The notes under the pieces are model-generated. The model was not told where the DNA came from, did not search any database, and saw nothing but the letters and a program-made list of their open reading frames with translations. A DNA stretch of 64,000 bases from Candidatus Edwardsbacteria bacterium (GTDB taxonomy: Bacteria; Edwardsbacteria; AC1; EtOH8), in assembly GCA_020053305.1 (NCBI GenBank), contig JAGVNJ010000050.1, positions 368 through 64,367 on the forward strand, read 5' to 3'. The first letter of the stretch is position 1, and each line of letters starts with the position of its first letter. A program made the translations under genes and the position numbers. Shown here piece after piece: positions 38,452-60,088 of this stretch.

Positions 38452-41400
38452 ATGCTCCATAGAAAATCCAAAATATATTCGTTGTCTTTGGCTCTGATCC
38501 TGACGGCGTCGGCGCTGGACATCGCCGGGAAGGCCCGGGCCCAGGAATTCGGACCATTGGAGGATATCACGGCGGATTACAATGCCGAGAGCTTCCGGAA
38601 AAACGTCAGGACCGCCAGCTACAGCATAGACCACCGGCTGGGGCTGATGATAGAGCAGGAGCTGGTTTCCCAGCTGAGCTTTGGGGTCAGGTATTACAGC
38701 CTGCCCGCCTTTTTGGAAAAACTGCGAATCGAGGGTACGGACAGCGCCTGGGCGAGGAACAATCATGCCTTCTTGTCAAAGCCGCCTCAGGAGAGGACCG
38801 GGGAGGGGCTGATCCCCGACATCCAGATACCCATCCCGGGGCTGGGCAGGGCCTTCGGCTCCGGGGCCCAGATAAAGGTCAGCGGCAACCAGAAGATAAC
38901 CGCCGGATACGACCGGACCACCTACAACCAGATCGGCCGGGACCTGGACGCCAATGCCACAACCGATGACGACCGGATAAACATCAAGCAGGCGCAACGA
39001 GTGAATCTGGAGGGGGTGATCGGCGACCGGGTGCATGTGCTGATAGATTACGACAGCGAGGCCGATCCTGACAAACGTAGCAAGGTCCGCCTGCGATATG
39101 AAGGCCAGGAGGACGAGATCCTGCAGAGCCTGGAGGCTGGGGACACCGAATTTTCCCTAAGCGGCTCCTCTCTGGTGGGCGGGCTGACCACGGTCCACAA
39201 GGGCCTGTTCGGGCTTAAGGGGGTGGCCCGGCTGGGGGGCTTCGAGCTGACGGCCATCGCCAGCAAGGACGAGGGCCAGAGCCAGACCAGCTCGTTCGAC
39301 GGCTCGAATGTAACCTCCTCCGTCACCCACCTGGACAATGAATTCATGCAGTATACGGTATACGAGATCATCCCCGGCGGGCTATTGGGCGATACCATCG
39401 AGGCCATAAAGGTCTATATCAAGAATGATCATGTCACCCCCAATGCCGCCGCCCATTACCTGAAGGACCGGAGCTGGCGGGATTTCAGGGGAATTCCCCG
39501 GGATACGATTTACGGCCCGGTTAGAATGGATGTCAAGACCGAGATCACCGATTTCATCCTGGACGATGCCGTAACCGGCCGGATAATTCTGGCCGCCGGC
39601 ATCTACGATCAATCGGTGCTGGGGGTGGCCTATAAGACCAAAAAAGGCGGCTATTATCCCAGCAAATATAATTTCGACAACTCGGATACCCTGATGCTGG
39701 TGAAGCCGGCCAACTGCCAGCCCGCCGATACCATAAACGGCTATTGCTGGAATTATGAAAAAAGAAATTATTATTCCTTGAACGGCCGGGGCATTGATTT
39801 CTCCACCCTGACCATAAAGCTGCAATACCGCAAAGAGAATGAATGGGTGGATAATGATTCGGCCAGCCAGAAGACCTTCCTGGAACTGCTGGGCCTGGAG
39901 AATGCCGGGGCCCTGTATGATAATTATATCAACCAGGAGGAGGGCTATTATTTCTTCCCCCAGGCTCAGCCGTTCCTGTCCCCGGCTCTGCCTGACAGCT
40001 GTCCTGACATCTACCGGGTGAAGAATCTGACCAATTATTCCGCCAAATACCGCTTTATCATCACCTACAAATCCACCGTGGCGATGTATCCCCTGAACGC
40101 CCCGGGGCGCCTGCTGGAGGGCACGGTCAGCGTCACCCTGGACGGATCACCGGTCTCGTCCGGCGAATATACGGTGGATTACGAGATGGGGACGGTCACC
40201 TTCAACGACCGGATCAAAAACATACTGCAGAGCAATGCCGCCCTTAAGATAGATTATCAATACCTGCCAGCGTTCGCTTTGGGGTCCAAGACCCTGGCCG
40301 GCCTGAGGGGCATCTATAAATTCGGGGAGAGCGGCCAGCTGGGCGGCACCTGGCTGTACCGCAGCGAGCAGACCCCGGACGAAAAGCCCCGGCTGGGCGA
40401 GGAACCCCGCCGGATAATCGTGGCCGGGCTGGACGGGAGCTACCAGGCCGCCCCCGATTTTCTCACCAGCTGGACCAATGCCCTGCCGCTGGTGGAGACC
40501 GAGGCCCCGTCCAACTTCAAGCTGACCGGCGAGGTGGCCGGAAATTTCCCCAACCCCAATACCAAGGGCCAGGTGTACATAGACGATATGGACGGCAGCA
40601 AGGTGTCCGACGAGTTCAACCTGAGCCGCTCGGCCTGGGTGCGCTCCAGCGTCCCTCCGGGCAAGACCGATACCCTGCTGGCCAAAACATTTTATTGGTA
40701 CAACCCCACCACCCAGGTCACCATGAAAGAGATCAATCCCGCCATCACCGATGAGACCCAGAAGAACGAAACCATCAGAACATTATTTTTTAAGTATGAA
40801 TCCGGACATCAGGACTCCTTGAACTCCTGGGCCGGGGTCACCCAGCTGATAAGCAAGACCGGGCTTGATTTAAGCCAGAGCAAACTGCTTAACCTCTGGA
40901 TAAGGGGCACTAAAGGGATCGTCCACATAGATATCGGGCGGAATATTGACGAGGATCAGGTATGGTGGACCAAGAAGGGTCTGCACCCGCAAAATAAAAA
41001 AGTGGACTGCGAGCCCTTGAACCTCAACCGGGAGCCGGTCTATACCGATAACACCGACATCGGCCTGGACCGGGTAAGGGGGAATGACAGCACTTATTCA
41101 TCCGCGTCAAGCGAAGACGGGACCGACGATTATGTTGTTGACGTAAATAAACCCGACTACAGTAAAATAAACGGAACCGAGCGCAACGGCTATTACGACA
41201 CCGAGGACCTTAAGATGAACGGCCTGGATTCGATGGATGTGCCCCAGCTGGGCAATAATTATTACACCTTCCGTTTCGATCTCTCCCAAAGCCCGGCCAA
41301 TCAATACGGCTGGCGCCAGCTGTCGGCTTTGCTGGATACCGCCCAGCCGGTGGGGCCCCAGCTGGGCTGGAGCTCCATTCAGTATGCCCGGATCTGGGTG

Positions 41401-44099: not shown

Positions 44100-44534
44100 T
44101 TGGCGGGAGAGATGTTTGGGTTGACCCCGGACGAAAAAAAAGTCATAATATTTTTTATTGCGGCCCTGGCGCTGGGCAATGCCGTACTGCTCTACAAGAA
44201 AATGCATCCGGACTCTGCCCCGGAGCTTAAATACGGCGGGCCGGAATTGCCCCGGGCCATCGAGCAGCCGGGGTCATTTCCGGCCGGCCCGGAAGCTGCG
44301 GCAAAAAATCAATGGCCGGTCAAAAAGCTCCCGGCCGGAAAGATAGACCTCAATCGGGCCGGCCCCCGGGACCTGCAGAGGCTGCCGGCCATCGGCCCGG
44401 CCATGGCCAAAAAAATAATTGATTTCAGGAAGGAATCAGGCGATTTCAAAAAAGTCGAGGACCTGATGAAGGTCAAGGGCATCGGCCATAAAAAATTCAA
44501 CCGGCTCCGGGAGCATGTCTTTGTAGACCATTAA
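44100..44534 (+). CDS. comEA: ComEA-like helix-hairpin-helix DNA-binding protein (competence DNA receptor)
   Basis: N-terminal TM (VIIFFIAALALGNAVLLY), Pro-rich linker and a C-terminal tandem HhH (IDLNRAGPRDLQRLPAIGPAMAKKIIDFRKESGDFKKVEDLMKVKGIGHKKF). Start is TTG at 44100 or ATG at 44112. Confidence 0.8.
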   Translation: MAGEMFGLTPDEKKVIIFFIAALALGNAVLLYKKMHPDSAPELKYGGPELPRAIEQPGSFPAGPEAAAKNQWPVKKLPAGKIDLNRAGPRDLQRLPAIGPAMAKKIIDFRKESGDFKKVEDLMKVKGIGHKKFNRLREHVFVDH

Positions 44535-44561: not shown

Positions 44562-44591
44562 TTGACATTTGCAACTTGCATATGCTATAGT
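44562..44591 (+). promoter_or_regulatory. Sigma-70-like promoter (TTGACA-N18-TATAGT) upstream of pilB1
   Basis: Exact -35 hexamer and near-consensus -10. GAGGGA ribosome-binding site before the ATG at 44614. Confidence 0.55.
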
Positions 44592-44613
44592 ATTTCAAAT
44601 TGAGGGAGACGCT

Positions 44614-46308
44614 ATGGGTTTGAAATTAGGCGATATGTTGGTGCAGTCCGGGCTGATAACCAAAGATCAGCTGGACAAGGCCCTGGCCGAGCAGAAAAGC
44701 TCCGGCGCCAAGCTGGGCTCCAGCATTATAAAGCTGGGATTTATGACCGAGGACGCCATCACCCAATTCCTGGGCAAGCAGCTCAACCTTCCCACGGTGA
44801 ATCTTTCCACCGCCGAACTGGATCCCCAGGTTTTAAAACTTATTCCCCCCGAGATAGCCCAGAAATTTCAGGTGATGCCGATCAAAAAAACCGGACGGAT
44901 CCTGTTTCTGGCCATGTCCAACGCCGCCGATGTGTTCATCATGGAGCAAATCTCTTTTCTCACCGGGATGGAGGTCAAGCCGGTGGTATGCGCCGAGACA
45001 TCGCTGGAGAAGGCTTTGGACAAATATTACGGCAGCACCACCCGGGCCGCGGCCCTGAAATCGGTGGAGCAGGAGATCGCCGCCGAGGACATGGAGCTGG
45101 TGGACAAGGATATTGAGGAGGTGGCCAGCCAGGCCGATATCGAATCCACCCCGGTGGTGAAATTAGTAAACAGCATAGTCATCGACGCCATCAAGCGCGG
45201 GGCCTCGGACATCCATATAGAGCCCTACGAAAAAATCCTCCGGGTGCGCTACCGGATAGACGGGGTGCTGCAGGAGACCATGTCGCCTCCCCGCCGGATC
45301 GCGGCGGCCCTGGCCTCGCGCATCAAGGTGCTTTCCAAATTGAACCTCACCGAACGGCGCCTGCCTCAGGACGGAAGGTTCTCCATCAAACTTATCGACC
45401 GGACGGTGGACCTGCGGGTGTCCACCATGCCCATCAAATACGGCGAGAAGATCGTCATCCGGGTGCTGGAGCAGACCAGCCTGGGCGGCGACCTGACCCA
45501 GCTGGGCATCGAGGGCAAGGCCCTGGATGATTTCCTGAAGGCCCTGGCCCGGCCCACCGGCATGATACTGGTCACCGGGCCCACCGGCTCGGGAAAGACC
45601 CGCACCCTTTATTCCGGCATCTCCCGCCTGAACAAGCCCGGGGTCAACATCGTCACCGCCGAGGATCCGGTGGAATACGACATCGTGGGGATCAACCAGG
45701 TCAACGTCCGCCCGGAGATCGGCTATACCTTTGCCAAGGCCCTCAAGGCCTTTTTGCGGCAGGATCCCAACATCGTGCTGGTGGGGGAGATTCGGGACCG
45801 GGAGACCGGCGAGATCGCCATGACCGCGGCCATGACCGGCCACCTGGTGCTGTCCACCCTGCACACCAATGACGCCCCCAGCTCGCTGAACCGGCTGCTG
45901 GATATGGAGATCCCGCCCTTCCTGATAGCCGCCACGGTGAACCTGATCGAAGCCCAGCGCTTAGTCCGGCGCATTTGTTCAAAGTGCAAGGAGCCGGAAA
46001 AAATATCGTCCGAGGAGATGATCAAGATGGGGGTGGATCCAGCCAGTTTCCAAGGGGTGGAGTTTTTCAAGGGCAAGGGATGCCTGGAGTGCAACAATAC
46101 CGGGTACAAGGGCCGGGTGGGCGTGTTTGAGATACTGCCGGTGAGTCCGGAGATAAGAAAACTGATAGTAACCCGGGCCTCCACCGATGAGATCCGGGAG
46201 ATGGCGGTCAAACTGGGGATGAAGACCCTGCGGGAGGATGCCCTGGATAAGGTCAGAAAAGGCATCACCACCATGGAGGCGGCCATCGTGGAGACGGCCT
46301 CGGATTGA
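44614..46308 (+). CDS. pilB: Type IV pilus/T2SS extension ATPase, PilB/GspE family, paralog 1 (N-terminal MshEN-type domain)
   Basis: N-terminal tandem motif KLGDMLVQSGLITKDQLDKALAEQ...KLGSSIIKLGFMTEDAITQFLGKQ. Walker A GPTGSGKTRT. Asp box AEDPVEY. Walker B VLVGEIRD. His box GHLVLSTLHTN. CxxC...CxxC zinc motif. Confidence 0.85.
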   Translation: MGLKLGDMLVQSGLITKDQLDKALAEQKSSGAKLGSSIIKLGFMTEDAITQFLGKQLNLPTVNLSTAELDPQVLKLIPPEIAQKFQVMPIKKTGRILFLAMSNAADVFIMEQISFLTGMEVKPVVCAETSLEKALDKYYGSTTRAAALKSVEQEIAAEDMELVDKDIEEVASQADIESTPVVKLVNSIVIDAIKRGASDIHIEPYEKILRVRYRIDGVLQETMSPPRRIAAALASRIKVLSKLNLTERRLPQDGRFSIKLIDRTVDLRVSTMPIKYGEKIVIRVLEQTSLGGDLTQLGIEGKALDDFLKALARPTGMILVTGPTGSGKTRTLYSGISRLNKPGVNIVTAEDPVEYDIVGINQVNVRPEIGYTFAKALKAFLRQDPNIVLVGEIRDRETGEIAMTAAMTGHLVLSTLHTNDAPSSLNRLLDMEIPPFLIAATVNLIEAQRLVRRICSKCKEPEKISSEEMIKMGVDPASFQGVEFFKGKGCLECNNTGYKGRVGVFEILPVSPEIRKLIVTRASTDEIREMAVKLGMKTLREDALDKVRKGITTMEAAIVETASD

Positions 46309-46343
46309 TAATCACCACATCAAAACTTTAAATAAGACATGAC

Positions 46344-48071
46344 ATGGCTTTAAAAGTCGGCGATATGCTGCTCAAGGCCGGGATGATCAGTCCGGAGCAG
46401 TTGGAACAGGCCCTCAAGGAGCAGCAGAGTTCGGGCCAGAGGCTGGGCTCCCTGCTGGTCAAGATGGGCTTTGTCACCGAGGACGAGGTGGTGGCCTTTC
46501 TCAGCAAGCAGTTCAACGTCCCCTCGGTCAACCTGAACGATTACAAGATCGACGAGCCCATCCTCAAACTGATACCGGCCCATATAGCCCAGAAGTACGG
46601 GCTGATCCCCCTGTCACGCCTGGGCCGGAGCGTGACCGTGGCCATGGTCAACCCCAACGATGTGCTGGCCATGGAGGACATAAAATTCTCCACCGGATTT
46701 GAGGTTCGCCCGGTGATAGCCTCCGAGGCCGCCATCTGGTCGGCCATCGACAAGCAATACGGGTCGGCCGGGATGCTGGAGGATGTGATGAAGGCCATGG
46801 ACCAGGCCGAGGGTGACGTCGAGGCCGGGGACCTGGAGATCCTGGAGGAGCAGCAGGAGGAAGGCGGAGATTCCGCCTCGGAGATGGCCGCGGCCATCGA
46901 GAGCAGCCCGGCGGCCAAATTGGTCAACGGCCTGATCGCCGAGGCGGTCAAGCGCAATGCCACCGACATCCACATCGAGCCCTATGAGAAGGAGATCCGG
47001 GTCCGGATGTCGGTCTACGGCGTGCTGCACGAAGTGATGTCGCCGCCCCTGCGGATGAAGAGCTCCATCGCGGCCCGGATAAAGATCATCGCCAAATTAA
47101 AGATCGAGGAAAAACGCTTTCCCCAGGACGGCCGCCTGCGGATGAACATCCAGGGCAAGCCCATAGACATCCGGGTGTCCATCATCCCCACCGCCTTCGG
47201 GGAGAAGGTGGCCCTGCGCATCCTGGACCGCAGCGCAGTGTCATTCGACCTGCCCACTCTGGGGTTTGAGCCTGAGCCGCTGAAGCACCTGTTGAAGGCG
47301 GTTCAGACGCCCTTCGGAATAGTGCTGGTCACCGGGCCCACCGGCTCCGGCAAGACCACCACCATGTACGCCTGCCTGGAGTCCATCAACCATCCGGACA
47401 CCAATATCATGACCGCCGAGGAGCCGGTGGAGTACAGCCTGATGGGAGTCAATCAGGTGGCGGTGCGCGAGGAAGGCGGCACCACTTTCGGCGCCGCCCT
47501 CAAGGCCTTTTTGCGGCAGGATCCCAACATCATCATGGTGGGAGAGATCCGCGACCGGCAGACCGCCGAGATCGCCATCCGGTCCTCGCTCACCGGCCAT
47601 CTGGTGCTGTCCACCGTCCATACCAACAGCGCCTCGCTGACCATCACCCGGCTGGTGGACATGGGGGTGGAGCCCTTCATGATCGCTTCCTCGTTGCTGC
47701 TGGTGGAGTCCCAGAGGCTGGTCCGCAAGATATGCTCCTACTGCAAGGAGCAGTACAGGCCGGAGGAAAAAATGCTGCGCGAATTCCTGGGGGGCCGGGC
47801 CGACATCACCGGCTTTACCGCCTTCCGGGGCAAGGGCTGCTCGGAATGCCGCAACACCGGATACAAGGGCCGGATCGGCCTGGCCGAGGTGCTGCCCGTC
47901 AGCCCGGGCATCCGGGACCTGATATTGGAGCGAGCCCCCACCTTCAAGATAGAGGCCAAGGCCGTGGAGGAAGGGATGGCCACCCTGCGGATGGACGGGA
48001 TCCACAAGGCCCGCAGCGGGGTGACCACCATCGAAGAGGTCATCAAGGAGACCGTGGCCGCCGCCGACTAA
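46344..48071 (+). CDS. PilB/GspE-family extension ATPase, paralog 2
   Basis: Same domain order and the same Asp/Walker B/His boxes. Walker A GPTGSGKTTT. Acidic linker EGDVEAGDLEILEEQQEEGGDS between the N-domain and the ATPase. Confidence 0.85.
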   Translation: MALKVGDMLLKAGMISPEQLEQALKEQQSSGQRLGSLLVKMGFVTEDEVVAFLSKQFNVPSVNLNDYKIDEPILKLIPAHIAQKYGLIPLSRLGRSVTVAMVNPNDVLAMEDIKFSTGFEVRPVIASEAAIWSAIDKQYGSAGMLEDVMKAMDQAEGDVEAGDLEILEEQQEEGGDSASEMAAAIESSPAAKLVNGLIAEAVKRNATDIHIEPYEKEIRVRMSVYGVLHEVMSPPLRMKSSIAARIKIIAKLKIEEKRFPQDGRLRMNIQGKPIDIRVSIIPTAFGEKVALRILDRSAVSFDLPTLGFEPEPLKHLLKAVQTPFGIVLVTGPTGSGKTTTMYACLESINHPDTNIMTAEEPVEYSLMGVNQVAVREEGGTTFGAALKAFLRQDPNIIMVGEIRDRQTAEIAIRSSLTGHLVLSTVHTNSASLTITRLVDMGVEPFMIASSLLLVESQRLVRKICSYCKEQYRPEEKMLREFLGGRADITGFTAFRGKGCSECRNTGYKGRIGLAEVLPVSPGIRDLILERAPTFKIEAKAVEEGMATLRMDGIHKARSGVTTIEEVIKETVAAAD

Positions 48072-48298
48072 ATATAATACTCGCCTTGGCAATAAACCAA
48101 AGACGAGCAAATCCTAAATCCGAAATCCCAAACAAATGTTAATGACCAAAGCCGTATAATATGGGCATTTTCGGATTTCTGGAATTTTAAAACTTGAGAT
48201 TTGTTTGGTATTTCGGTATTCGAATTTCGGATTTGCCAAAGTGGCAAATACACTCATGAAGAAGGCTCGTTTAAAAATTTAATTAAGCCATAAAACTT

Positions 48299-50065
48299 AT
48301 GCCGCAAAATATTGCCGACATGCTTTTGAAGATGGGACTCCTGACCAAGTCCCAGTACGATCAGGCCTCTCTGGAGCAGAAGAGCAGCAACGAGCCGCTG
48401 GCCGCCACCTTGGTCCGGATGGGGATGGTCACCGAGAACGTGGCCATGCAGTTCATGTCCCGGCAGTTCAATGTCCCGGCCATGGACCTGAGCAACTTCC
48501 AGGTGGAGCCGGCGGTGATAAAGCTGATCCGGCCGGACATCGCCAACAAATTCATGGTGATCCCGTTAAAGCGCCTGGGCCGGGCCCTGACCCTGGCCAT
48601 GATCGATCCCTCGGATTTCTTCGCCCTGGAGGATATCAAATTTCTCACCGGCCTGGACGTCAAGCCGGTGGTGGCCGGCTATTCGGCCGTCAAGAAACTG
48701 CTGGAGCAGCACTATCCGCTGGGCAAGGATGTTCAGGTGATCGCCTCCGGCGGCCAGCTGAGCCAGCTTAAGGACGAGGCCATCGAGAGCCTGCCCGATG
48801 ATGACTCGGCCCTGGAGGGGCTGGGGGGCGACATCGAGATGGAGATGGTGGACGATGTCGAGGAGGACATGGACCTGGCCGACGCCCAGCAGGCCGGCTC
48901 CTCCACCCCGGTGGTCAAAATGGTCAACTACATCATGACCGAGGCGGTGCGCCGCGGAGCCTCGGACATCCATGTGGAGCCCTATGAGAAGATCTTCCGG
49001 ATCCGATTGAGGCAGGACGGCGTGCTGCAGACCCTGATGGAGCCGCCCATGCGGATGAAGGCCCCGCTGGTCTCCCGCATAAAGATCATGTCCAAACTGG
49101 ACGTCACCGAGCGCCGCAAGCCGCAGGACGGCCGGATCGCCATCAAGGTGCTCAACAAGAAGATCGACCTCCGGGTGTCCACCCTGCCGGTGCTGTTCGG
49201 GGAGAAGGTGGTGATGCGTATTTTGGACGCCGGGTCGCTGACCCTGGATCTGGCCAATTTCGGCTTCACCGAACTGGCCCTGAAGAATTTCATGAAGGCC
49301 ATCCACGCCCCCTACGGCATAGTCCTGATCACCGGCCCCACCGGGTCGGGAAAGACCACCACCCTGTATTCCGCCCTCTCCCAGCTGAACACGCCGGACC
49401 GGCATATCCTGACCGTGGAGGATCCCATCGAATACAATCTGAAGGGGGTCAACCAGGTCCAGGCCGAGTTGGGGATAGGTTTCACCTTTGACGTGGCCCT
49501 CAGGGCCATGCTGCGGCAGGCTCCCAACATCATCATGCTGGGCGAGATCCGGGACGGCCCCACCGCCGCCATCGCGGTCAAGGCCGCCCTGACCGGGCAT
49601 CTGGTGTTGTCCACCCTGCATACCAACGACGCTCCGTCGTCGGTCAGCCGTCTGATCGACATGGGGATCGAGCCGTTCCTGGTGGCCTCCTCGACCGTGC
49701 TGATCCAGGCCCAGCGCCTGGTCCGCCGGATATGCAAGGCCTGCAAGGAGCCGTTCCATGTCAATCCCCAGTCCCTGATCGACATGGGCTTCAAAGCCGA
49801 GGAGGTGGCCGGGGTCACCTATTACAAGGGCAAGGGCTGCCCCATCTGCAGCAATACCGGATACAAGGGCCGGGTGGGTCTCTACGAGGTGATGCCCATC
49901 ACTCCCGAGATCCGGGACCTGATACTGAACCGGGAGGCGGTGACCTCCATCAGGGCCAAGGCGGTGGAACAGGGGATGCTGACCCTGCGGATGGACGCCT
50001 GGGGCAAGGTCAAGCAGGGCATGACCACGGTGGAGGAGATGTTCCGCGAAACCGCCGAGGGATAG
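48299..50065 (+). CDS. PilB/GspE-family extension ATPase, paralog 3
   Basis: Same architecture. Walker A GPTGSGKTTT. Acidic linker DDDSALEGLGGDIEMEMVDDVEEDMD. Tetracysteine motif CKACKEP...CPICSNTG. Confidence 0.85.
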   Translation: MPQNIADMLLKMGLLTKSQYDQASLEQKSSNEPLAATLVRMGMVTENVAMQFMSRQFNVPAMDLSNFQVEPAVIKLIRPDIANKFMVIPLKRLGRALTLAMIDPSDFFALEDIKFLTGLDVKPVVAGYSAVKKLLEQHYPLGKDVQVIASGGQLSQLKDEAIESLPDDDSALEGLGGDIEMEMVDDVEEDMDLADAQQAGSSTPVVKMVNYIMTEAVRRGASDIHVEPYEKIFRIRLRQDGVLQTLMEPPMRMKAPLVSRIKIMSKLDVTERRKPQDGRIAIKVLNKKIDLRVSTLPVLFGEKVVMRILDAGSLTLDLANFGFTELALKNFMKAIHAPYGIVLITGPTGSGKTTTLYSALSQLNTPDRHILTVEDPIEYNLKGVNQVQAELGIGFTFDVALRAMLRQAPNIIMLGEIRDGPTAAIAVKAALTGHLVLSTLHTNDAPSSVSRLIDMGIEPFLVASSTVLIQAQRLVRRICKACKEPFHVNPQSLIDMGFKAEEVAGVTYYKGKGCPICSNTGYKGRVGLYEVMPITPEIRDLILNREAVTSIRAKAVEQGMLTLRMDAWGKVKQGMTTVEEMFRETAEG

Positions 50066-52766: not shown

Positions 52767-54941
52767 ATGAGATCAACTTTCCTGAAGGATAACCCGGTGA
52801 TGTTTTGGGGCCGGGTGGTAATCGTGGCATTGATGACGGGAAGCGCTGCGGTGTTAAAAACACTGGGGGCGCTTCCCCTGTCTTTTCCGGGCATCATCCT
52901 CCTGTCTATCATCTTCCTGCTGCTGACGGCCTTTGCTAAGTATCTTAATCATCGGCGGCCGGGCTGGCGGTGGGATTATGCCCAAATGGTGCTGGACATC
53001 GGCTGGATCGCCGCCTTCATCCATATGACCGGCGGGGCGGAGAACCCCTTTACCCTGCTGTTCTTCATAGCCATTATTGCCGCCGCCAATGTCCGCTTTG
53101 CTAAGGGAGCAATTTTCACCGCCACCTTATCCAGCCTGACCCTGGCCGCTTTGATATATTTGGATTACCGCAGTTTAAGGACCGGACTGTTGCTGGGCCG
53201 GGACCAGGATTTCGTGACTGCTTTCACTACCGAGTTTGTTTTCCGGGGATACCTCTATGCCATCTGCTTCTATCTGGTGGCGGCCTTCTCCGGCTACCTG
53301 GCCGAAAGGCTCAGGCTGAAGGGGAGGCAGCTGGAGGACACCGCCCGGGCCCTGGAGGAGTTCAAGCTGTCCACCGGCGATATCCTGGAGAAGATGGGCA
53401 GCGGCCTGCTGACCATCAATGAAAAAGGGCAGATCGTATACTGCAACCTTTCCGGCCTGCAGATACTGGGCCTGGAAAAAAGCGAGATCATCGGCCGCAA
53501 TGTCTCCCAGGTAGCCGTCGAGGGCCGGGAATCCCTGGGGAGCATTCTGGCCCCGGATAATGCCCCAAGGGAAGGCCGCTCCCAGCGGATGGAGATAAAA
53601 ATATCGCGGGGCCGGGAGGAGGGCATTCCGGTGGGGGTCAGCACCACCTCGGTCTATGGCAGCCAGGGGAAACTGGAGGGCATCATCGCCATCTTCCAGG
53701 ACCTGAGCGCGGTCAAAACGCTGGAGAACCGGATGATCGAGATGGAACAGCTGGAGACCTCCAAGGAGCTGACCAAATCCCTGCTGAAGCTTCTGCATCC
53801 CTACCTTTCCGAGATAAATGCCACCATCTCCGAACTGATGAGGGAGAATGAGGTGGACCCGGTCATCATCGCCAAGATCTCCCGGGTTAAGGAGAAGACC
53901 GAGTATATCCGCAAGACCATCGATGACTTTGCCAGGTTCGCCCATATCGAAATCCCGGGAGCCGATATGGTCCAGCAGGCCGGCCGGGAATATGACAGCC
54001 GGATAATTGGCCGGTCGCCGAATTTCGTCGAGATCATGAACATGGTCCAGCAGGTGGCCCCCACCGACAGCACGGTGCTGGTCTGCGGGGAGTCCGGCAC
54101 CGGCAAGGAACTGCTGGCCCGGGAGCTGCACCGCCTGAGCGGTCGGGGCAAAGGACCATTCGTCAGCATCAACTGCGCCGCCCTGCCCGAGACCCTGCTG
54201 GAATCGGAGCTGTTCGGCCATGTCAAGGGATCGTTCACCGGGGCGATGCGCGACAAGGACGGCCTGTTCCGGGTGGCCTCCGGCGGCACCTTTTTCTTAG
54301 ACGAGGTGTCCGAGACCTCTCCGGCCATTCAGGTTAAGCTGCTGCGGGTGCTGCAGGAACGGGAGATCGTGCCGGTGGGAGGCACCCGTCCCATCAAGGT
54401 GGATGTCAGGGTGATCTCGGCCACCAACAGCGATCTGGCAAAGGCGGTGGAGATGAATAAATTCAGGATGGATCTGTTCTACCGCCTTAACGTCATCCAG
54501 ATCACCATCCCTCCGCTGAGGGACCGCAAAGACGACGTGCTGCTGCTGGCCGATGAGATCATCGCCAATTATTGCCGGAAGCAGAATCTCCCGGTTAAGC
54601 TGATGTCTTCCGGGGCCAGGGATTTTTTGATGCAATACAATTGGCCCGGCAACGTCAGGGAATTGGAGAATGTCTTGGAGCGGGCCATCATCCTGGAGAC
54701 CGGACCGGTGATAGAAAAAAACAGCCTGCCGGACGAGGTATTGAAGTTCGGGTCCGACATTAAAAAGGCGCCGTTACCGGAAACGGCCAACGGGGGGAAT
54801 TTAAAGGACAAGGAAAAGCAGACCATTCTTAAGGTATTGACCGAATGCCATAACAATAAGGCCTTGGCGGCCAAAAAGCTGGGTATTCACTACGCCACTT
54901 TGTACCGGAAATTGAAAAGCTATAATATTACGGATGAATAA
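52767..54941 (+). CDS. Membrane-anchored sigma-54-dependent transcriptional activator (polytopic TM sensor - PAS - AAA+ - Fis HTH; no receiver domain)
   Basis: Four to six N-terminal TM helices containing a PilS/AlgZ-like HMTGGAENPF segment. PAS-like region. Sigma-54 interaction domain (VLVCGESGTGKELLAREL, GSFTGA variant of GAFTGA, RVISATN). C-terminal HTH (ALAAKKLGIHYATLYRKL). Confidence 0.8.
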   Translation: MRSTFLKDNPVMFWGRVVIVALMTGSAAVLKTLGALPLSFPGIILLSIIFLLLTAFAKYLNHRRPGWRWDYAQMVLDIGWIAAFIHMTGGAENPFTLLFFIAIIAAANVRFAKGAIFTATLSSLTLAALIYLDYRSLRTGLLLGRDQDFVTAFTTEFVFRGYLYAICFYLVAAFSGYLAERLRLKGRQLEDTARALEEFKLSTGDILEKMGSGLLTINEKGQIVYCNLSGLQILGLEKSEIIGRNVSQVAVEGRESLGSILAPDNAPREGRSQRMEIKISRGREEGIPVGVSTTSVYGSQGKLEGIIAIFQDLSAVKTLENRMIEMEQLETSKELTKSLLKLLHPYLSEINATISELMRENEVDPVIIAKISRVKEKTEYIRKTIDDFARFAHIEIPGADMVQQAGREYDSRIIGRSPNFVEIMNMVQQVAPTDSTVLVCGESGTGKELLARELHRLSGRGKGPFVSINCAALPETLLESELFGHVKGSFTGAMRDKDGLFRVASGGTFFLDEVSETSPAIQVKLLRVLQEREIVPVGGTRPIKVDVRVISATNSDLAKAVEMNKFRMDLFYRLNVIQITIPPLRDRKDDVLLLADEIIANYCRKQNLPVKLMSSGARDFLMQYNWPGNVRELENVLERAIILETGPVIEKNSLPDEVLKFGSDIKKAPLPETANGGNLKDKEKQTILKVLTECHNNKALAAKKLGIHYATLYRKLKSYNITDE

Positions 54942-54959
54942 GAAACAGGGTAGTCGGTA

Positions 54960-55150
54960 TGGCAATAATAGTCATCCTGAGATTCTTCGGCTTGCCGGGC
55001 AGGATGCAGGACTCAGAATGACGAAATGGTTTGCTGTCACGTCATCCTGAAAGCGACAACAGTTTTCACAATGTCATTCCCTCGAAAGAGGGTATCTATG
55101 TTTTTGCTGGATTCCCGCCTATGCGGGAATGACACAGAATTGAAGGATCT
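54960..55150. repeat. Hairpin-rich intergenic repeat cluster (GTCATCCTGA x2; TGTCATTCCC...GGGAATGACA 10-bp inverted repeat)
   Basis: Direct and inverted copies of a GTCATYCC / GGAATGAC core. Small perfect hairpins (CCCTC-gaaa-GAGGG, TCCCGC-ctat-GCGGGA). Related copy at 60927-61035. Confidence 0.6.
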
Positions 55151-55201: not shown

Positions 55202-55217
55202 AGGCACGATAATTGCT
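55202..55217 (+). promoter_or_regulatory. Sigma-54 (-24/-12) promoter upstream of the HAMP-pilin gene
   Basis: AGGCACGATAATTGCT matches TGGCACG-N4-TTGCW with correct GG/GC spacing. About 36 nt upstream of the ATG at 55253. Confidence 0.65.
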
Positions 55218-55252
55218 TATATTATCTGCATAACAGACATTAAGGAATTGAT

Positions 55253-56338
55253 ATGGCTCAAAATCGAAGACGAAAAATACTGGCCCACAAGGATATGCAG
55301 ATCAGGATCGTCATTCAGATCTTGGCAATGGTGGCCGGCGGAATGCTGCTGGTGGGCGGGGCGATATATCTGATCATCTGGCAGGGCATCACCAGCCCGG
55401 CCTTTGCTTCGGGTCAAACATCAATAATCAGCATCTTTGACCAGGTGCATAAATTGCTTTTTATAGTTATTCCGGTTCTTATCTTGATAATGGGCTGGAT
55501 CGCAATAATTATCTCACATCGTATAGCCGGACCTTTGGTAAACCTGAACAAGGGCATGAGAGACCTGGAGAGCGGCCAGTGGCCGGAGCGGCCCATGAAA
55601 TTCCGCAAAGGGGATGAGGGCCATCACCTGGCAGAGCAGTTCAACAGCATGGTGGAGAAAGTAAAATTGCAGATGGAACACGAAAGAAACAGGATGGACT
55701 CCATGCTGACTGAAGTGGAATCCGTTTCAGCCAAGTTAAAGCAGGAGAAAAAGACCGAACAGGAAATCATAAAGGAATTGGATTCATTGCAGGAAAAAAT
55801 CAAAAAATCCGCTCAGCAGGGCTTCACCCTGATAGAATTGATGATCGTGGTGGTGATAATAGGCATACTGGCCGCCATAGCCGTGCCCAATTACATGAGT
55901 ATGCGCAGCCGGGCTATGGAAGCCTCTACCAAATCAAATATGCATACTCTGCAATTAGTGATTGAAGATTTTGCGGTGAGGGTTGACGGCTTTTACCCCG
56001 ATAACTTGGATACAAAATTATCGGATATTAACGCATCATTATCTGCCGTTTCGATTGCCGAAGGCGTGCGTATCCCGCCATTCCCGGCCGCTGCCTTGAT
56101 ATGTCCGCACTTGGGTTATGTCAATCCGTTTAATCCTGCGGCCAACGCTTTGGACGATCTCCCGGGCGGCCCGCCAGCACCGGCGGCGGGCCCCAGCGGA
56201 GATGTTTTTTATACCAGTTATGATGTTGACGGCAACCTGAACGGAGGCACCAATCCAGCCGCTAGGGGGTATAGAATATGTGCATATGGTAAAACTGACC
56301 CCGTGATCCTGATTTTAACTGGAGGCACGGGAAATTAG
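55253..56338 (+). CDS. 2TM-HAMP-coiled-coil protein fused in-frame to a type IV prepilin (or two unresolved genes with the pilin starting at an internal TTG)
   Basis: Residues 1-90: two TM helices with a short loop. Residues 90-140: HAMP-like (HRIAGPLVNLNKGMRDLESGQW...DEGHHLAEQFNSMVEKV). Then about 50 aa of coiled coil. Then the canonical prepilin motif KKSAQQG|FTLIELMIVVVIIGILAAIAVPNY and a pilin globular domain paralogous to 56518..57018. No stop codon separates the two parts. Confidence 0.55.
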   Translation: MAQNRRRKILAHKDMQIRIVIQILAMVAGGMLLVGGAIYLIIWQGITSPAFASGQTSIISIFDQVHKLLFIVIPVLILIMGWIAIIISHRIAGPLVNLNKGMRDLESGQWPERPMKFRKGDEGHHLAEQFNSMVEKVKLQMEHERNRMDSMLTEVESVSAKLKQEKKTEQEIIKELDSLQEKIKKSAQQGFTLIELMIVVVIIGILAAIAVPNYMSMRSRAMEASTKSNMHTLQLVIEDFAVRVDGFYPDNLDTKLSDINASLSAVSIAEGVRIPPFPAAALICPHLGYVNPFNPAANALDDLPGGPPAPAAGPSGDVFYTSYDVDGNLNGGTNPAARGYRICAYGKTDPVILILTGGTGN

Positions 56339-56437: not shown

Positions 56438-56453
56438 TGGCATGATTTATGCT
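56438..56453 (+). promoter_or_regulatory. Sigma-54 (-24/-12) promoter upstream of pilA
   Basis: TGGCATGATTTATGCT fits TGGCAC-N5-TTGCW in spacing. About 65 nt upstream of the pilA ATG. Confidence 0.65.
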
Positions 56454-56517: not shown

Positions 56518-57018
56518 ATGAACAACAAAGGCTTTACCCTGATCGAGTTGATGATCGTGGTGGTCATCATCGGTATCCTGGCGGCCATCGCCATTCCCAA
56601 CTTTATGTCCATGCAGGACCGGGCCAAGGAAGGTTCCGTCAAGGCTAATATGCATACCCTGCAGTTGGCGTCCGAGGATTTCTCTACCCAAGCTGATGGG
56701 ATTTATGCAGGAAACCTCGCTAGCACAATTGCTGATGCTAACGCCCTGTCTGCCAGCGTGTCTACTATTCCATTGTTATTGCCGGGCAATTTTAAGAACC
56801 CGTTTTTAGGTACAACGGGCGTAGGGGGTGGTTTGGCACTTAACGACGGCGGCGCGGAGCCGGCAGTATTTGCGGTTGCTGATAGAGGCATAGTATATTA
56901 TAACGGCTTGGATGTGGCTGGCGCATATGTTGGGGCAGTGGGTCCGGCAGTATCCTACGCAATCTATGGCGCAGGCAAAACTGACATTATTATCCTTAGG
57001 CTTACTTCGGGCCAGTAG
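56518..57018 (+). CDS. pilA: Type IV major pilin (PilA-like)
   Basis: MNNKG|FTLIELMIVVVIIGILAAIAIPNF prepilin leader and N-terminal helix. 166 aa. Confidence 0.85.
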   Translation: MNNKGFTLIELMIVVVIIGILAAIAIPNFMSMQDRAKEGSVKANMHTLQLASEDFSTQADGIYAGNLASTIADANALSASVSTIPLLLPGNFKNPFLGTTGVGGGLALNDGGAEPAVFAVADRGIVYYNGLDVAGAYVGAVGPAVSYAIYGAGKTDIIILRLTSGQ

Positions 57019-57128: not shown

Positions 57129-57530
57129 ATGAATTGCCCCTACATAAGACATTTGAAAAAAAATGTAACAATAATTTTGCTGTTCCTCTTCTGCGGTTGT
57201 GCAAATACAGATAAGACCCCGGAGGCGGCGGTAAGATATTTCTGGGCGGCCATGGCCAAGGGCGACAAAGCGGAGGTGCTCAAAACCCAGATATATTATA
57301 AAACAGGCATGACCTCCGAATTCATAAATATCCCGGAAAACATCGAGTGGCTTTATTTAGACAGCATGACCACTGTTTACAAAAGCGATTCCCGGGCAGA
57401 TGTTTATTACCAGGTGGTATTCAGGAAGAATAACGGCACAAAAACTGTCCGTTATAAAACCGGGACCCTGGCCATTAAAAAGAACAATAATTGGATGATA
57501 GCAAGGGTGATAGGAGCTAAAAAAGAATGA
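57129..57530 (+). CDS. Small lipoprotein of unknown function
   Basis: Lipobox LFLFCGC after a positively charged N-terminus. ATGA overlap with the downstream ABC ATPase. Confidence 0.45.
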   Translation: MNCPYIRHLKKNVTIILLFLFCGCANTDKTPEAAVRYFWAAMAKGDKAEVLKTQIYYKTGMTSEFINIPENIEWLYLDSMTTVYKSDSRADVYYQVVFRKNNGTKTVRYKTGTLAIKKNNNWMIARVIGAKKE

Positions 57531-58456
57531 CGGCCGTCATACAGATAAAGGGGTTATATAAAACCTACCAAAAACATTTCTGGATGCCCCGGCAAACCGT
57601 GCTTAAGGGCTTGAACCTGGAGGTGGAGGCGGGACAGATATTCGGTTTCCTCGGCCCCAACGGGGCCGGCAAGACCACCACCATCAAAACATTGATGGGC
57701 ATCATCCGGCCCAGCGCCGGCCGGGCCTTGCTTTTCGGCAAAGACCCCTGGGATATCGAGCCCAAACAGAGGATCGGCTTTCTGCCGGAATCCCCATATT
57801 TCTATGATTATCTGACCGGCCTCGAGTTCCTGGTATTTTGCGGCCGACTGTTCAATATAAGCAGTGTCGTTTTAAAGAGCAGGATCCAGGAACTGCTGGC
57901 CTTAGTCAACTTGAGTTATGCCGCCGATCTGCAGATGCGCAAATACTCCAAGGGCATGCTGCAGCGGATAGGGCTGGCCCAAGCCCTGATCAACGACCCC
58001 CAGCTGGTGGTGCTGGACGAACCGCTGACCGGCTTGGACCCGCTGGGCCGCAAGGAATTCAAGGACATCATTCTGAATTTAAAGGCCCGGGGCAAGACGG
58101 TTTTTTTCAGCTCCCATATCCTGCCGGACGCCGAGATGGTCTGCGATGCCGTGGCCATAATCAACAAAGGGAAACTTCTGCAGGTGGGAAATCTGGCCGA
58201 TCTCCTTAACGCCCGGATCAAAGCGATTGAATTAAACTGCCGGAATATTCCCGAGGAAACGGCCGGCAAAATGAAAAGCCGGTCGCTTTCGTCAAATACC
58301 ATCAACGGGCAATGGCAGTTCAATTTAAAGGCCGAGGCCGACATTTCCGGGGCGATAGATCTGGTGAAGGCCGCTGGCGGGGATATTATAAGTGTCATCC
58401 CCCAAAAGGAAAGCCTGGAGGAATATTTTTCCCGGGAGGTGGCCGGCGATGCGTAA
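57527..58456 (+). CDS. ABC transporter ATP-binding protein (ABC-2 exporter type)
   Basis: Walker A GPNGAGKTTT, signature YSKGMLQR and Walker B VVLDEPLTGLD. Confidence 0.85.
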   Translation: MTAVIQIKGLYKTYQKHFWMPRQTVLKGLNLEVEAGQIFGFLGPNGAGKTTTIKTLMGIIRPSAGRALLFGKDPWDIEPKQRIGFLPESPYFYDYLTGLEFLVFCGRLFNISSVVLKSRIQELLALVNLSYAADLQMRKYSKGMLQRIGLAQALINDPQLVVLDEPLTGLDPLGRKEFKDIILNLKARGKTVFFSSHILPDAEMVCDAVAIINKGKLLQVGNLADLLNARIKAIELNCRNIPEETAGKMKSRSLSSNTINGQWQFNLKAEADISGAIDLVKAAGGDIISVIPQKESLEEYFSREVAGDA

Positions 58457-59216
58457 AATAAGAGCCATAGCCTATAATACCTTTACCGAGGGCATCAGGT
58501 CCAAAACGCTCTATGCCTTGCTGATCTATATAATGCTGATTCTGTTCAGCGTCACCGCCCTGGTGCCGTTGACTTTGGGAGAGCATTCCCGCATCCTGCG
58601 GGATTTCGGCTTGTCCGGCATAGAATTTTTAAGCGTGATGCTGGCCATCGTTATCGGGACCACATTGGTCTATAAGGAGGTTGAGAAGAGGACGATCTAT
58701 GTTATCGCCTCCAAACCGGTGGAGAGGTTCGAATTTCTGCTGGGCAAATATTTGGGAATGGAGCTGCTGTTGGGCCTGGTGATATTTTTGATGGCCGTGA
58801 TATTCACTTTGGGGGTGCTGTTCCTGGACGGCAAATTCACCTTTATCCTGCTATTGCCGGTGACCATGATCTTCGTAAAAGTGTCGGTGATCAACATCAT
58901 TGCCCTTTTCTTCTCCAGCCTGTCCTCGCCGGTCTTGGGCGCGGTCTTCACATTTTGCTTTTATCTGGCCGGAACCCTAAGCCGGGATATTTTACGCCTG
59001 GTCCAGCGCCTGTCGGAGGGGCCCCTGAAAATTATTCTCAAAATATTTTATTACCTCCTGCCCAATATGGGGAATATGGACCTTAAGAATCAGGCGGTTT
59101 ACGATACGGCTGTTTTATGGCCCCAGGTTTGGTGGGCGCTGTCCTACAGCGGGGCCTATATTCTGGCGATGCTGATGATAACCTCGCTGATCTTTGAAAA
59201 GAAGGATTTCAAGTGA
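58449..59216 (+). CDS. ABC-2 family transporter permease
   Basis: Six TM segments. Immediately follows the ATPase with overlap. Confidence 0.6.
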   Translation: MRKIRAIAYNTFTEGIRSKTLYALLIYIMLILFSVTALVPLTLGEHSRILRDFGLSGIEFLSVMLAIVIGTTLVYKEVEKRTIYVIASKPVERFEFLLGKYLGMELLLGLVIFLMAVIFTLGVLFLDGKFTFILLLPVTMIFVKVSVINIIALFFSSLSSPVLGAVFTFCFYLAGTLSRDILRLVQRLSEGPLKIILKIFYYLLPNMGNMDLKNQAVYDTAVLWPQVWWALSYSGAYILAMLMITSLIFEKKDFK

Positions 59217-60088
59217 TGAAGGCAGGGGGTTTAATAAAAGGCAGTCCGGTCCGGTATGTATTGATGCTATTGGGAGGATGCCTGGTGTTCTTCAGCCAGG
59301 TTAAGATAGACCTGATGCTGAAAACCGAACGGCAGGGCGAATTGATGTATTTCCCCAATGCGGCGGTGACCAAGGCCGCCGCATTCGGATACGACAACCT
59401 GGCCGGCGACTGGATTTGGCTGCAGACCATCCAATATTACGGCCAGCATACTTTAACCGACCGGCAGTACCAATATTTGGGCCATATGTTCGATGTTTTA
59501 AGCGTTCTGTCCCCAAATTTCAGGGTGGCCTATAACTTCGGGGCCCTGCTGCTGGCCCATGACGCCGCCGATGTCCCGGCCGCCGACCGGCTGATGAAAA
59601 AGGGAATGGAGAACAATCCGGAAGACTGGTCCATCCCCTTTTTCCGGGGCTTCGTTCACTTCGTATTTGCCCGTAATTACCGGGAAGCCGGCCGGTGGTT
59701 CACCATCTCCTCCCGCCGGCCCGGGGCTCCGGAAATGCCGGGCCGTTTTGCCGCCTTTGCCCTGCAGAAAGGCAAGGACCCGGAAACTTCCCGGGCCTTG
59801 TGGGTGGAACTAATGAATAAGACCGAAAACAAAACGGAAAAATCCATAGCCCAGTATTATATCAGTAAAATCGACCGGGAAATAATACTGGGGCAGCTTC
59901 GGGAAGCTGCGGGTAATTTCCAAAAGGAAAATAACCGGACGATAATTTCGCTAAAAGACCTGATACTATGGGGCTATATTAAACAGATTCCCGACGATCC
60001 ATTGGGCGGGTATTTTTACTGGGACCCTGATAAAAAAACAGTGATGACAGAAGGCGGGCAAAGCATAAGCAAAAAAGCGGGTTTATAA
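59213..60088 (+). CDS. Hypothetical membrane-anchored protein
   Basis: N-terminal TM (VLMLLGGCLVFFS). No recognisable motif. Confidence 0.35.
   Translation: MMKAGGLIKGSPVRYVLMLLGGCLVFFSQVKIDLMLKTERQGELMYFPNAAVTKAAAFGYDNLAGDWIWLQTIQYYGQHTLTDRQYQYLGHMFDVLSVLSPNFRVAYNFGALLLAHDAADVPAADRLMKKGMENNPEDWSIPFFRGFVHFVFARNYREAGRWFTISSRRPGAPEMPGRFAAFALQKGKDPETSRALWVELMNKTENKTEKSIAQYYISKIDREIILGQLREAAGNFQKENNRTIISLKDLILWGYIKQIPDDPLGGYFYWDPDKKTVMTEGGQSISKKAGL

Follow-up and report, generated by a model that had tools for sequence, protein, structure and literature searches.

A window of 64,000 nucleotides from Candidatus Edwardsbacteria (contig JAGVNJ010000050.1, positions 368 to 64,367 of the forward strand) carries at 55253..56338 an open reading frame (ORF) of 361 amino acids plus stop, with an ATG start and no internal stop codon, in which a membrane-bound HAMP module runs into a type IV prepilin; this ORF and all its parts lie on the plus strand. 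The protein opens with a basic cytoplasmic N-terminus (residues 1-18, 55253..55306), whose motif N-R-R...Q-x-R was recognised by ortholog conservation. It continues with a first transmembrane (TM) helix, TM1 (residues 19-43, 55307..55381; hydrophobicity scan, and model helix 13-46 with a predicted local distance difference test score, pLDDT, of 89.5), a short periplasmic loop with zero Lys or Arg, read from the sequence (residues 44-66, 55382..55450), and TM2 (residues 67-89, 55451..55519; hydrophobicity scan, orthologs and model), which terminates in the invariant pair S88-H89. The HAMP domain (residues 90-138, 55520..55666) consists of AS1 (RIAGPLV), a connector with G108 and W110, and AS2 (D121-E...LAEQFNSM), and leads into a Lys/Glu-rich, heptad-periodic helical region (residues 139-183, 55667..55801; helices to 164 and 169-188), which is the most variable part of the protein and acts as a spacer or tether. 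Within it, at 55778..55789, lie the in-frame TTG codons of L176 (55778-55780) and L179 (55787-55789), which are not conserved as starts. The basic leader-proximal KKSAQQG (residues 184-190, 55802..55822) ends in an invariant glycine at position -1, and the predicted mature pilin (residues 191-361, 55823..56335) comprises an alpha1 helix that includes TM3 (191 to about 215) and carries E195 at +5, and a globular domain rich in beta structure.

A preliminary description of the ORF had reported a complete class III signal motif and a pilin domain paralogous to the PilA encoded downstream, and both were borne out. The prepilin motif (residues 186-210) scored 37.3 bits against PF07963 (N_methyl; cut-off 21.2) and 35.7 bits against TIGR02532 (cut-off 16.3), and the stretch ...SAQQG190/F191TLIE195LMIVVVIIGILAAIAVP displays the terminal Gly, the hydrophobic run and the Glu at +5 that characterize prepilins, with the predicted cleavage site between G190 and F191 (nt 55820-55825). 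The pilin part aligned with the downstream PilA over its full length at 47% identity (BLASTP, E 8e-34), and an AlphaFold2 model of the whole protein built it as a helix (193-243) together with three strands (pLDDT 63-83). Confidence in that model was low at residues 180-192, indicating a predicted flexible region around the junction, and a fold search with the full-length model, whose confidence was 66, returned weak matches alone. The motif is atypical in its position, since it begins at residue 184 of 361 instead of following an N-terminal hydrophilic leader, and the 183 residues before it hold two TM helices and a folded HAMP domain.

The two TM helices, the HAMP-like linker and the coiled coil that had been proposed for this stop-free N-terminal part were likewise recovered. 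The hydrophobicity scan delimited segments at about 15-46 and 57-96, and residues 124-186 have a 3.5-residue hydrophobic periodicity that was reached by 0 of 5000 shuffles. With six Lys/Arg before TM1, zero in the 23-residue loop and basic residues after TM2, the fused product is directly readable as an N-in protein with three hydrophobic segments, and this charge distribution therefore assigns the pilin head to the periplasmic side of the membrane and the HAMP domain, the helical region and the G190/F191 site to the cytoplasmic side. The hydrophobic N-terminal portion of the pilin alpha1 helix (alpha1N) is equally directly readable as a third TM helix running from in to out, with the same geometry as in a normal prepilin.

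Pfam HAMP (PF00672) matched residues 87-137 with 20.8-22.1 bits against a cut-off of 25 bits, and was matched independently by 83 of the 98 aligned family members (E<=1e-3, best 6e-13), one relative (L089) reaching 46.5 bits. A profile built from the N-terminal 189 residues aligned TM2 and HAMP with those of Tsr (E 8e-4), NarQ (E 2.5e-3) and Af1503 (E 0.03). The module model, obtained with a deeper alignment, reached a pLDDT of 89.5 and a predicted TM-score (pTM) of 0.74, with helices at 13-46, 58-106, 124-164 and 169-188 and a connector at 107-123, and its top Foldseek matches were WalK (probability 0.98, root mean square deviation 3.4 A) and VicK (0.96, 2.7 A), both with weak E-values. The layout is that of a HAMP domain, AS1, connector and AS2 following straight after a TM helix, with a Pro in AS1, a Gly in the connector and DE...L...FN.M in AS2. 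P94, D121, A127, F130, N131 and M133 are invariant in the orthologs, where G108 and W110 are conserved in at least 90%; in the wider stand-alone family G93 and D121 are invariant and R6, Q16, P94 and G108 are at least 90% conserved, the family-wide conserved positions being R6, Q16, H89, G93, P94, G108, R118 and D121.

A hidden Markov model (HMM) of the module, searched exhaustively over 1.84 billion representatives, matched 11,982 proteins at E<=1e-3, 843 at E<=1e-10 and a single one at E<=1e-30, which was the fused family itself. The best 149 other matches have a median length of 195 residues and 0 of them has a prepilin motif; stand-alone homologs measure 140-220 residues and end after a short coiled coil. 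Among the 98 aligned members no recurring domain was found besides HAMP and none matched MCPsignal; the label "methyl-accepting chemotaxis protein" that several stand-alone members bear was accordingly set aside as unsupported, the corresponding domain being missing. Taken together, the profile, HMM, domain and model results make the module a member of a large family of 2TM-HAMP-coiled-coil proteins that lack an output domain and have been mis-annotated. Two members (P0153 and P0179) carry two modules in tandem within one polypeptide. In another (P0219), the module is followed by an apparent internal Sec-type signal peptide (LCAPAVQA/NV) and a HExxH domain with no Pfam match; we considered this protein as a parallel architecture and rejected it, as a single sequence whose C-terminal part has no family match, and it stays a hint.

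A full-length query of a 5.8-billion-protein collection returned 23 full-length ortholog clusters (332-362 residues, 49-78% identity, 95-100% query coverage) drawn from NCBI, JGI, ENA and Logan assemblies, the named records being Candidatus Edwardsbacteria metagenome-assembled genomes. Their architecture is uniform, the prepilin Gly falling at position 165-194, and none is split by a stop codon, so that the orthologous HAMP-pilin fusions to which the preliminary description had pointed as an argument against sequencing error do exist. The DNA of 12 loci was recovered via exact-protein look-ups and a module-only alignment; in the scans of genome collections, a single-protein query yielded nothing and an alignment query was swamped by ordinary pilins with the generic GFTLIELM, only one locus (L008) proving useful. 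In the 12 DNA loci a single frame runs across both halves, also through linker indels of 5 and 25 codons: one ortholog (P0022) has a linker 5 residues shorter, and in another (P0024) it is replaced by a Pro/Thr/Gly-rich stretch 25 residues shorter. For the ratio of nonsynonymous to synonymous substitution rates (dN/dS, Nei-Gojobori), residues 1-183 gave about 0.19, the pilin part 0.16 and the variable linker 0.44, values that are rough because dS is saturated, and as far as these alignments go purifying selection is acting on every segment of the gene. G190, F191 and E195 are invariant in the 23 orthologs, four different Gly codons being used for G190; positions -2 to -7, by contrast, vary. 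Also invariant are N4, R5, R6 and Q16 at the N-terminus and T47, G54 and F62 in the periplasmic loop, and G35, G36, Y39 and W43 of TM1 are conserved. Conserved in 23 ortholog clusters and 12 DNA loci, the arrangement lies far beyond chance, and the genuine fusion that had been one of two initial readings is the one that stood.

The other initial reading was that of two genes, with the pilin starting at an in-frame TTG near 55781 preceded by AAGGA. The AAGGA does exist, at 55772-55776, but no TTG lies at that position: the two available ones are those of L176 and L179, 1 nt and 10 nt away from the AAGGA, respectively. As a general mechanism the internal start found no support, because residue 179 is TTG or ATG in only 7 of the 12 sequences and the AAGGA ahead of it is confined to the sub-clade of the window itself. 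In three of the 12 the codon is ATC or ATT, and in the two most divergent orthologs (L082 and L159) the residue falls inside the rearranged linker, with no ATG, GTG or TTG within 28 codons of the glycine at -1. The candidate internal start positions (179, 168, 157 and 135) and their Shine-Dalgarno (SD)-like runs are not conserved, these runs being by-products of Lys/Glu codons, and no internal promoter or terminator above background was found between the HAMP and pilin halves.

The start at M1, for its part, is preceded by an SD-like AAGGA (55242..55246, plus strand) 6 nt before the ATG, and SD-like purine runs stand ahead of M1 in the orthologs too. Further upstream lies a sigma-54 -24/-12 element (GGCACGATAATTGCT, 55203..55217, plus strand), the sole exact match to GGCAYG-N4-TTGCW in the window, and under the strict pattern 8 of the 12 orthologs have a matching element 46-51 nt ahead of their start codon, with near-matches in most others. 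The conserved single frame, the purifying selection, the SD and sigma-54 elements of M1 and the lack of a conserved internal start make it almost certain, on comparative grounds, that the fusion is a single gene translated as one polypeptide from M1.

Other pilins with apparently long leaders (P0044-P0117) were examined as parallels and discarded as over-extended ORF calls with non-coding-looking sequence; TM segments are absent from the leaders checked, and many of these proteins have a Met 5-8 residues before the Gly. Some of the over-extended ORFs upstream of related pilin genes (P0114, P0085 and P0117) repeat NKFLTGFTPL(K/E); each copy is a degenerate version of the 5' end of a pilin gene (leader plus GFTLIE), perhaps left over from duplications of that end or serving as a substrate for recombination. 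In a 598-residue ORF from another organism (P0079), a sigma-54 activator (AAA+, HTH_8) continues without a break into a prepilin whose Gly has a Met 6 residues ahead of it; this ORF is probably a gene-call merger or a read-through from pilR into pilA.

The fusion gene sits in a pilus gene cluster in the order three PilB-like ATPases, PilT, PilC, regulator, fusion, pilA, small gene, ABC ATPase, ABC-2 permease and 291-residue protein, and the gene order around the fusion is conserved in the orthologs. Downstream of it, pilA (56518..57018, plus strand) encodes a canonical prepilin with a 5-residue leader (MNNKG/F), the presumed major pilin, which is hypervariable. A second sigma-54 -24/-12 element (GGCATGATTTATGCT, 56439..56453, plus strand) precedes pilA, and similar elements lie between fusion and pilA in several orthologs; a search for activator sites shared by the two sigma-54 promoter regions gave only a 9-mer, which is not convincing. 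In ten genomes free PilA always has a 5-residue leader and its globular part, of 132-186 residues, shows a median identity of 26%, whereas the globular part of the fused pilin in ten genomes measures 166-172 residues and shows 47% identity; because of this difference we consider the fused pilin a distinct, constrained PilA paralog and not a second major subunit.

The regulator gene upstream of the fusion (52767..54941, plus strand) encodes 6TM_PilS (16-184; 40.6 bits), PAS_9 (213-314), Sigma54_activat (413-579) and HTH_8 (680-719) domains, as assigned by Pfam, which detected no HisKA, HATPase or Response_reg domain in it, so that sensor and AAA+ activator share one chain. The protein is thus a PilS/PilR hybrid of one component, a 6TM sensor joined to a sigma-54 activator. 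Its gene precedes the fusion in every ortholog locus, and it is the probable activator of both the fusion and the pilA sigma-54 promoters. Distant relatives (L163-L165) have a classical REC-type PilR instead of this hybrid.

Several other features of the region were recorded. The intergenic stretch between regulator and fusion (54942-55140) contains hairpin-forming repeats, CCCTCGAAAGAGGG at 55079-55092 and ATTCCCGCCTATGCGGGAAT at 55111-55130, which may be the terminator of the regulator gene, REP-like elements or activator sites, and no counterpart of which was found upstream of pilA. Three consecutive PilB-like ATPase genes (44569-50065, plus strand; 579, 575 and 588 residues, each MshEN plus T2SSE) come before pilT and pilC, and two or more copies are present in ortholog loci as well. 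Upstream of them, a 1879-residue ORF (38452-44091, plus strand) with no Pfam match at E<=1e-3 directly precedes a ComEA-like HHH_3 gene (44100-44534). The ABC ATPase, ABC-2 permease and Pfam-less 291-residue protein downstream of pilA (57527-60088, plus strand) form a layout that resembles pilH/pilI/pilG of M. xanthus. No rpoN gene was found in the sequence available.

Outside the Edwardsbacteria fusion, the module and a pilin are repeatedly encoded as neighbours. Loci of 70 distant metagenomic homologs were retrieved with two peptide patterns, and 36 of them had enough flanking sequence on both sides. A prepilin gene lay within about 1 kb of the module in 13 of these 36 evaluable loci, against an expectation of about 0.014 per locus calculated from a background of one motif in 160 kb (about 1.4%); the 13 loci are not 13 independent events, because some are near-duplicates and related loci are included. 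In a high-GC clade the pilin gene comes first and its stop directly adjoins the start of the module gene; in a Nitrospira-like clade the module gene comes first and the pilin gene lies 29-52 nt away, one locus (L008) having two tandem modules. In both gene orders a transmembrane sensor follows directly after the pair; these sensors have in common an N-terminal region of about 290 residues plus HAMP, and end in a histidine kinase, a GAF with HD_5, or a hybrid kinase. The resulting three-gene cassette of GspG-like pseudopilin, 2TM-HAMP module and transmembrane sensor was seen in L008 (7180-13532), in L100, L121, L125 and L135, and in L119/L122 and L138, in Nitrospira-like and high-GC lineages; the hybrid histidine kinase of the cassette carries REC and Hpt, and in the high-GC clade a Pfam-less 710-residue membrane protein precedes the cassette.

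One locus (L164) links these split versions to the fusion. The second of its two pilins is the ortholog of the fused pilin, with globular domains 42.5% identical (E 4e-21) and the common signature GVRIPPFP...PH.G..NPFNP, compared with an E of only 3e-10 to the PilA of the window itself. A separate module gene of 146 residues (E 8e-22 to the fused module) begins 15 nt after the stop of this pilin, and a homolog of the 291-residue gene of the window comes next on the opposite strand. Orthologs of the ABC-2 permease (35% identity) and of the 291-residue protein (39%) of the window flank the module in L089 (6913-9162, minus strand) and L164 (6967-7770, minus strand). As far as gene neighbourhoods can tell, the best reading of the fusion is thus a Rosetta-stone joining of a pilin and a membrane HAMP partner that are separate neighbours in other lineages.

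The link to pilins is frequent in the family but not universal, because L089, the L090 group and other clades have no pilin nearby. In six loci (L090, L097, L103, L108, L140 and L147) the module always comes after a secreted TPR plus PDZ protein of about 320 residues and before MurJ; this clade also has a UvrC-like gene (judged by its N-terminal sequence) downstream and genes for CBM30-like proteins upstream, with no pilin. Another clade adjoins a class A penicillin-binding protein (PBP), again with no pilin nearby.

On balance, and with somewhat more confidence than doubt, we explain the locus as a conserved Edwardsbacteria fusion that would be split by a prepilin peptidase and would take part in pilin-linked signalling with the upstream activator. 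In this explanation the peptidase would cut after G190 and release a 190-residue 2TM-HAMP protein and a 171-residue mature pilin in a 1:1 ratio, the fusion guaranteeing co-insertion and stoichiometry of the module and its pilin. The HAMP module would then bind membrane-embedded pilin and relay pilin status to a partner sensor, which here would be the upstream PilS-6TM/PAS/sigma-54 activator driving the fusion gene and pilA. Cleavage by prepilin peptidase (PilD) at G190/F191 is the step that we regard as likely, because G-1, F+1 and E+5 never change among the orthologs although positions -2 to -7 drift, the Gly is encoded by four different codons and the junction is predicted to be flexible. 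The geometry fits as well, because the leader is cytoplasmic and the peptidase acts at the cytoplasmic membrane face, where according to PMC10191384 it requires no other protein. Cleavage would moreover restore the ancestral state, because the same partners work as separate polypeptides in other lineages, and the linker, which varies in length and composition (Pro/Thr/Gly-rich in P0024), suits a tether and not a rigid signal wire. A signalling or feedback role of the module is put forward more tentatively. The hypothesis of "pilin-inventory sensing or feedback", already voiced in the preliminary description, gains circumstantial support because cassettes of pilin, module and transmembrane sensor recur and a PilS-type 6TM activator is encoded upstream. 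The much stronger conservation of the fused pilin relative to the hypervariable PilA also speaks for a signalling role.

Several observations weigh against this explanation, to which the saturated dS adds by loosening the estimates of selection. No prepilin peptidase gene was found in the window or in the fetched ortholog loci with the A24 motif, and the class III definition given in PMC10191384 does not cover a 190-residue leader that includes two TM helices. In L164 the order is pilin then module, the reverse of the fusion, so the fusion did not arise by simple loss of a stop codon, and the stand-alone relatives closest in sequence (L089 and the L090 group) are not adjacent to a pilin. Finally, the window genome and its closest relatives carry TTG179 with AAGGA 10 nt upstream, which could yield some independent pilin in them.

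One alternative is a real fusion that escapes cleavage. It would be a three-TM protein in which the HAMP module never parts from alpha1 and the periplasmic pilin head, and this form could be a pilin-mimic sensor or decoy for the PilS-like activator, or a non-extractable subunit docking at the pilus base. At its size the leader is unprecedented, and the peptidase may refuse a substrate with two TM helices in it; the conservation of the fused pilin, far above that of PilA, is what a non-structural, non-exposed role would lead one to expect; and helix-breaking and intramembrane contacts, not cleavage, could be what keeps G-1 and E+5 in place. However, in L164 and the other split cassettes module and pilin are separate polypeptides and the pilins have ordinary leaders, so that with cleavage the fusion could be tolerated free of any further change, a variable, flexible and partly disordered linker would be a poor transmitter of HAMP motions, and all cleavage determinants are invariant while neighbouring residues drift; we therefore consider permanent tethering unlikely. 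Even less weight is given to two products from one frame, with the prepilin made mainly by internal initiation at TTG179 with a 12-residue leader and the long form as by-product. The start codons found at residue 179 in seven of the 12 sequences, the AAGGA/AGGAG at 9-10 nt before TTG179 in the window, L087 and L088, and a GTG168 behind a GGAGG-like run in four loci (three of them the same sequence) would suit it, but the ATC/ATT codons at residue 179 and the loci devoid of any nearby start do not, neither the starts nor the runs that follow from Lys/Glu codons are conserved, and independent expression would not hold one frame, stop-free and through indels of 3n, in every ortholog; this makes it quite improbable.

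With fusion and cleavage both accepted, the module could still serve the assembly or quality control of its pilin, as a membrane holdase, a chaperone or a partner of PilG/H/I-like ABC proteins, and not be a signalling adaptor. The closest stand-alone homologs (L089 and L164) stand beside orthologs of the ABC-2 permease and 291-residue protein, many family members occur in cell-envelope contexts (PDZ/TPR protein, MurJ, class A PBP) and the module is missing an output domain, all of which would agree with such a role. Against it, the pilin-linked split versions consistently precede a transmembrane HAMP sensor with kinase or HD outputs, the neighbour here is a PilS-type sensor-activator, and HAMP is a signal-conversion domain found in receptors and kinases, for which reasons we find the assembly role rather unlikely. 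An artefact, that is a sequencing or assembly error or a pseudogene merging HAMP and pilin genes, is suggested by the oddity of the architecture alone and is refuted, to a probability close to nil, by the presence of the same fusion in 23 clusters from independent assemblies and pipelines under purifying selection throughout.

If the precursor is processed as we propose, prepilin peptidases would be able to cleave internally a three-TM protein whose "leader" is a folded stretch of 190 residues, which would widen the known range of their substrates and make these peptidases candidates for regulated proteolysis. The fusion also serves as a Rosetta stone that ties an output-less HAMP family, labelled as chemoreceptors in some sources, to pilins or pseudopilins and adjacent sensors, and the locus reveals a one-component version of PilS-PilR. 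It further offers a concrete, testable candidate mechanism by which cells could gauge the pilin pool of their membrane; work on this question has so far centred on PilS in Pseudomonas and PilA signalling in Caulobacter. A bolder extension, more a speculation than an expectation on the present gene data, is that 2TM-HAMP proteins would be widespread, unrecognised intramembrane pilin receptors relaying the state of the pilin pool, with receptor and ligand made as one precursor in Edwardsbacteria and the prepilin peptidase as a signalling protease arming the receptor by cutting a polytopic membrane protein at an internal site. The receptors would pass this state on to the PilS-like sigma-54 activator in Edwardsbacteria, and in other phyla to histidine kinases or HD-type phosphodiesterases.

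Compared with known systems, the module resembles the TM-HAMP regions of Tsr, NarQ, WalK/VicK and Af1503 in the passage of TM2 into an AS1 with a conserved Pro, the Gly of the connector and the DE...L...FN.M of AS2, and differs from them by having neither a periplasmic sensor domain (its loop measures 23 residues) nor any output domain in the 98 members. Autoregulation by PilS and PilA in P. aeruginosa, where the membrane pilin pool is the signal (PMC6058289, citing Kilmury and Burrows 2016), and PilA-dependent signalling in Caulobacter (PMC7196804) are the nearest functional counterparts. The PilS-PilR system shares with the locus a 6TM PilS-type domain encoded beside sigma-54 dependent pilin genes. 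Here, in contrast, the PilS TM domain is fused to a sigma-54 AAA+ activator without kinase or receiver, and an extra output-less HAMP protein forms one chain with a dedicated pilin paralog. Neither a HAMP-prepilin fusion nor a membrane-spanning prepilin leader nor a pilin-linked stand-alone HAMP protein was found described in the full-text literature searched, most subscription journals lying outside its scope.

With canonical type IVa prepilins (PilA of the P. aeruginosa/M. xanthus type) the fused pilin shares Gly at -1 and Phe at +1, Glu at +5, an alpha1N with 20-25 hydrophobic residues, a sigma-54 promoter and a site within a pilB-pilT-pilC-regulator-pilA cluster, and an alpha1 helix with a beta-sheet head is predicted for it as well. 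The class III signal is defined in PMC10191384 as N-terminal, with a hydrophilic leader; the leader of a prepilin ends in Gly or Ala, and 20-25 hydrophobic residues come after it. The signal of the fusion is instead internal, with a 190-residue leader containing two TM helices, HAMP and coiled coil in place of a short hydrophilic N-terminal peptide, and its head domain is conserved whereas that of PilA is hypervariable. Modular pilins, as described in PMC8179133 and PMC10191384, combine a pilin module with a grafted adhesive domain that is not specific to pilus biology. PilB and PilC of S. sanguinis thus resemble the fusion in that a pilin module is joined to a non-pilus domain. Their graft reportedly lies on the mature C-terminal side, is extracellular and adhesive, and is retained on the assembled subunit. 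The extra module of the Edwardsbacteria fusion, in contrast, is N-terminal to the cleavage site, cytoplasmic or membrane-bound and of a signalling class, and it would be removed by processing.

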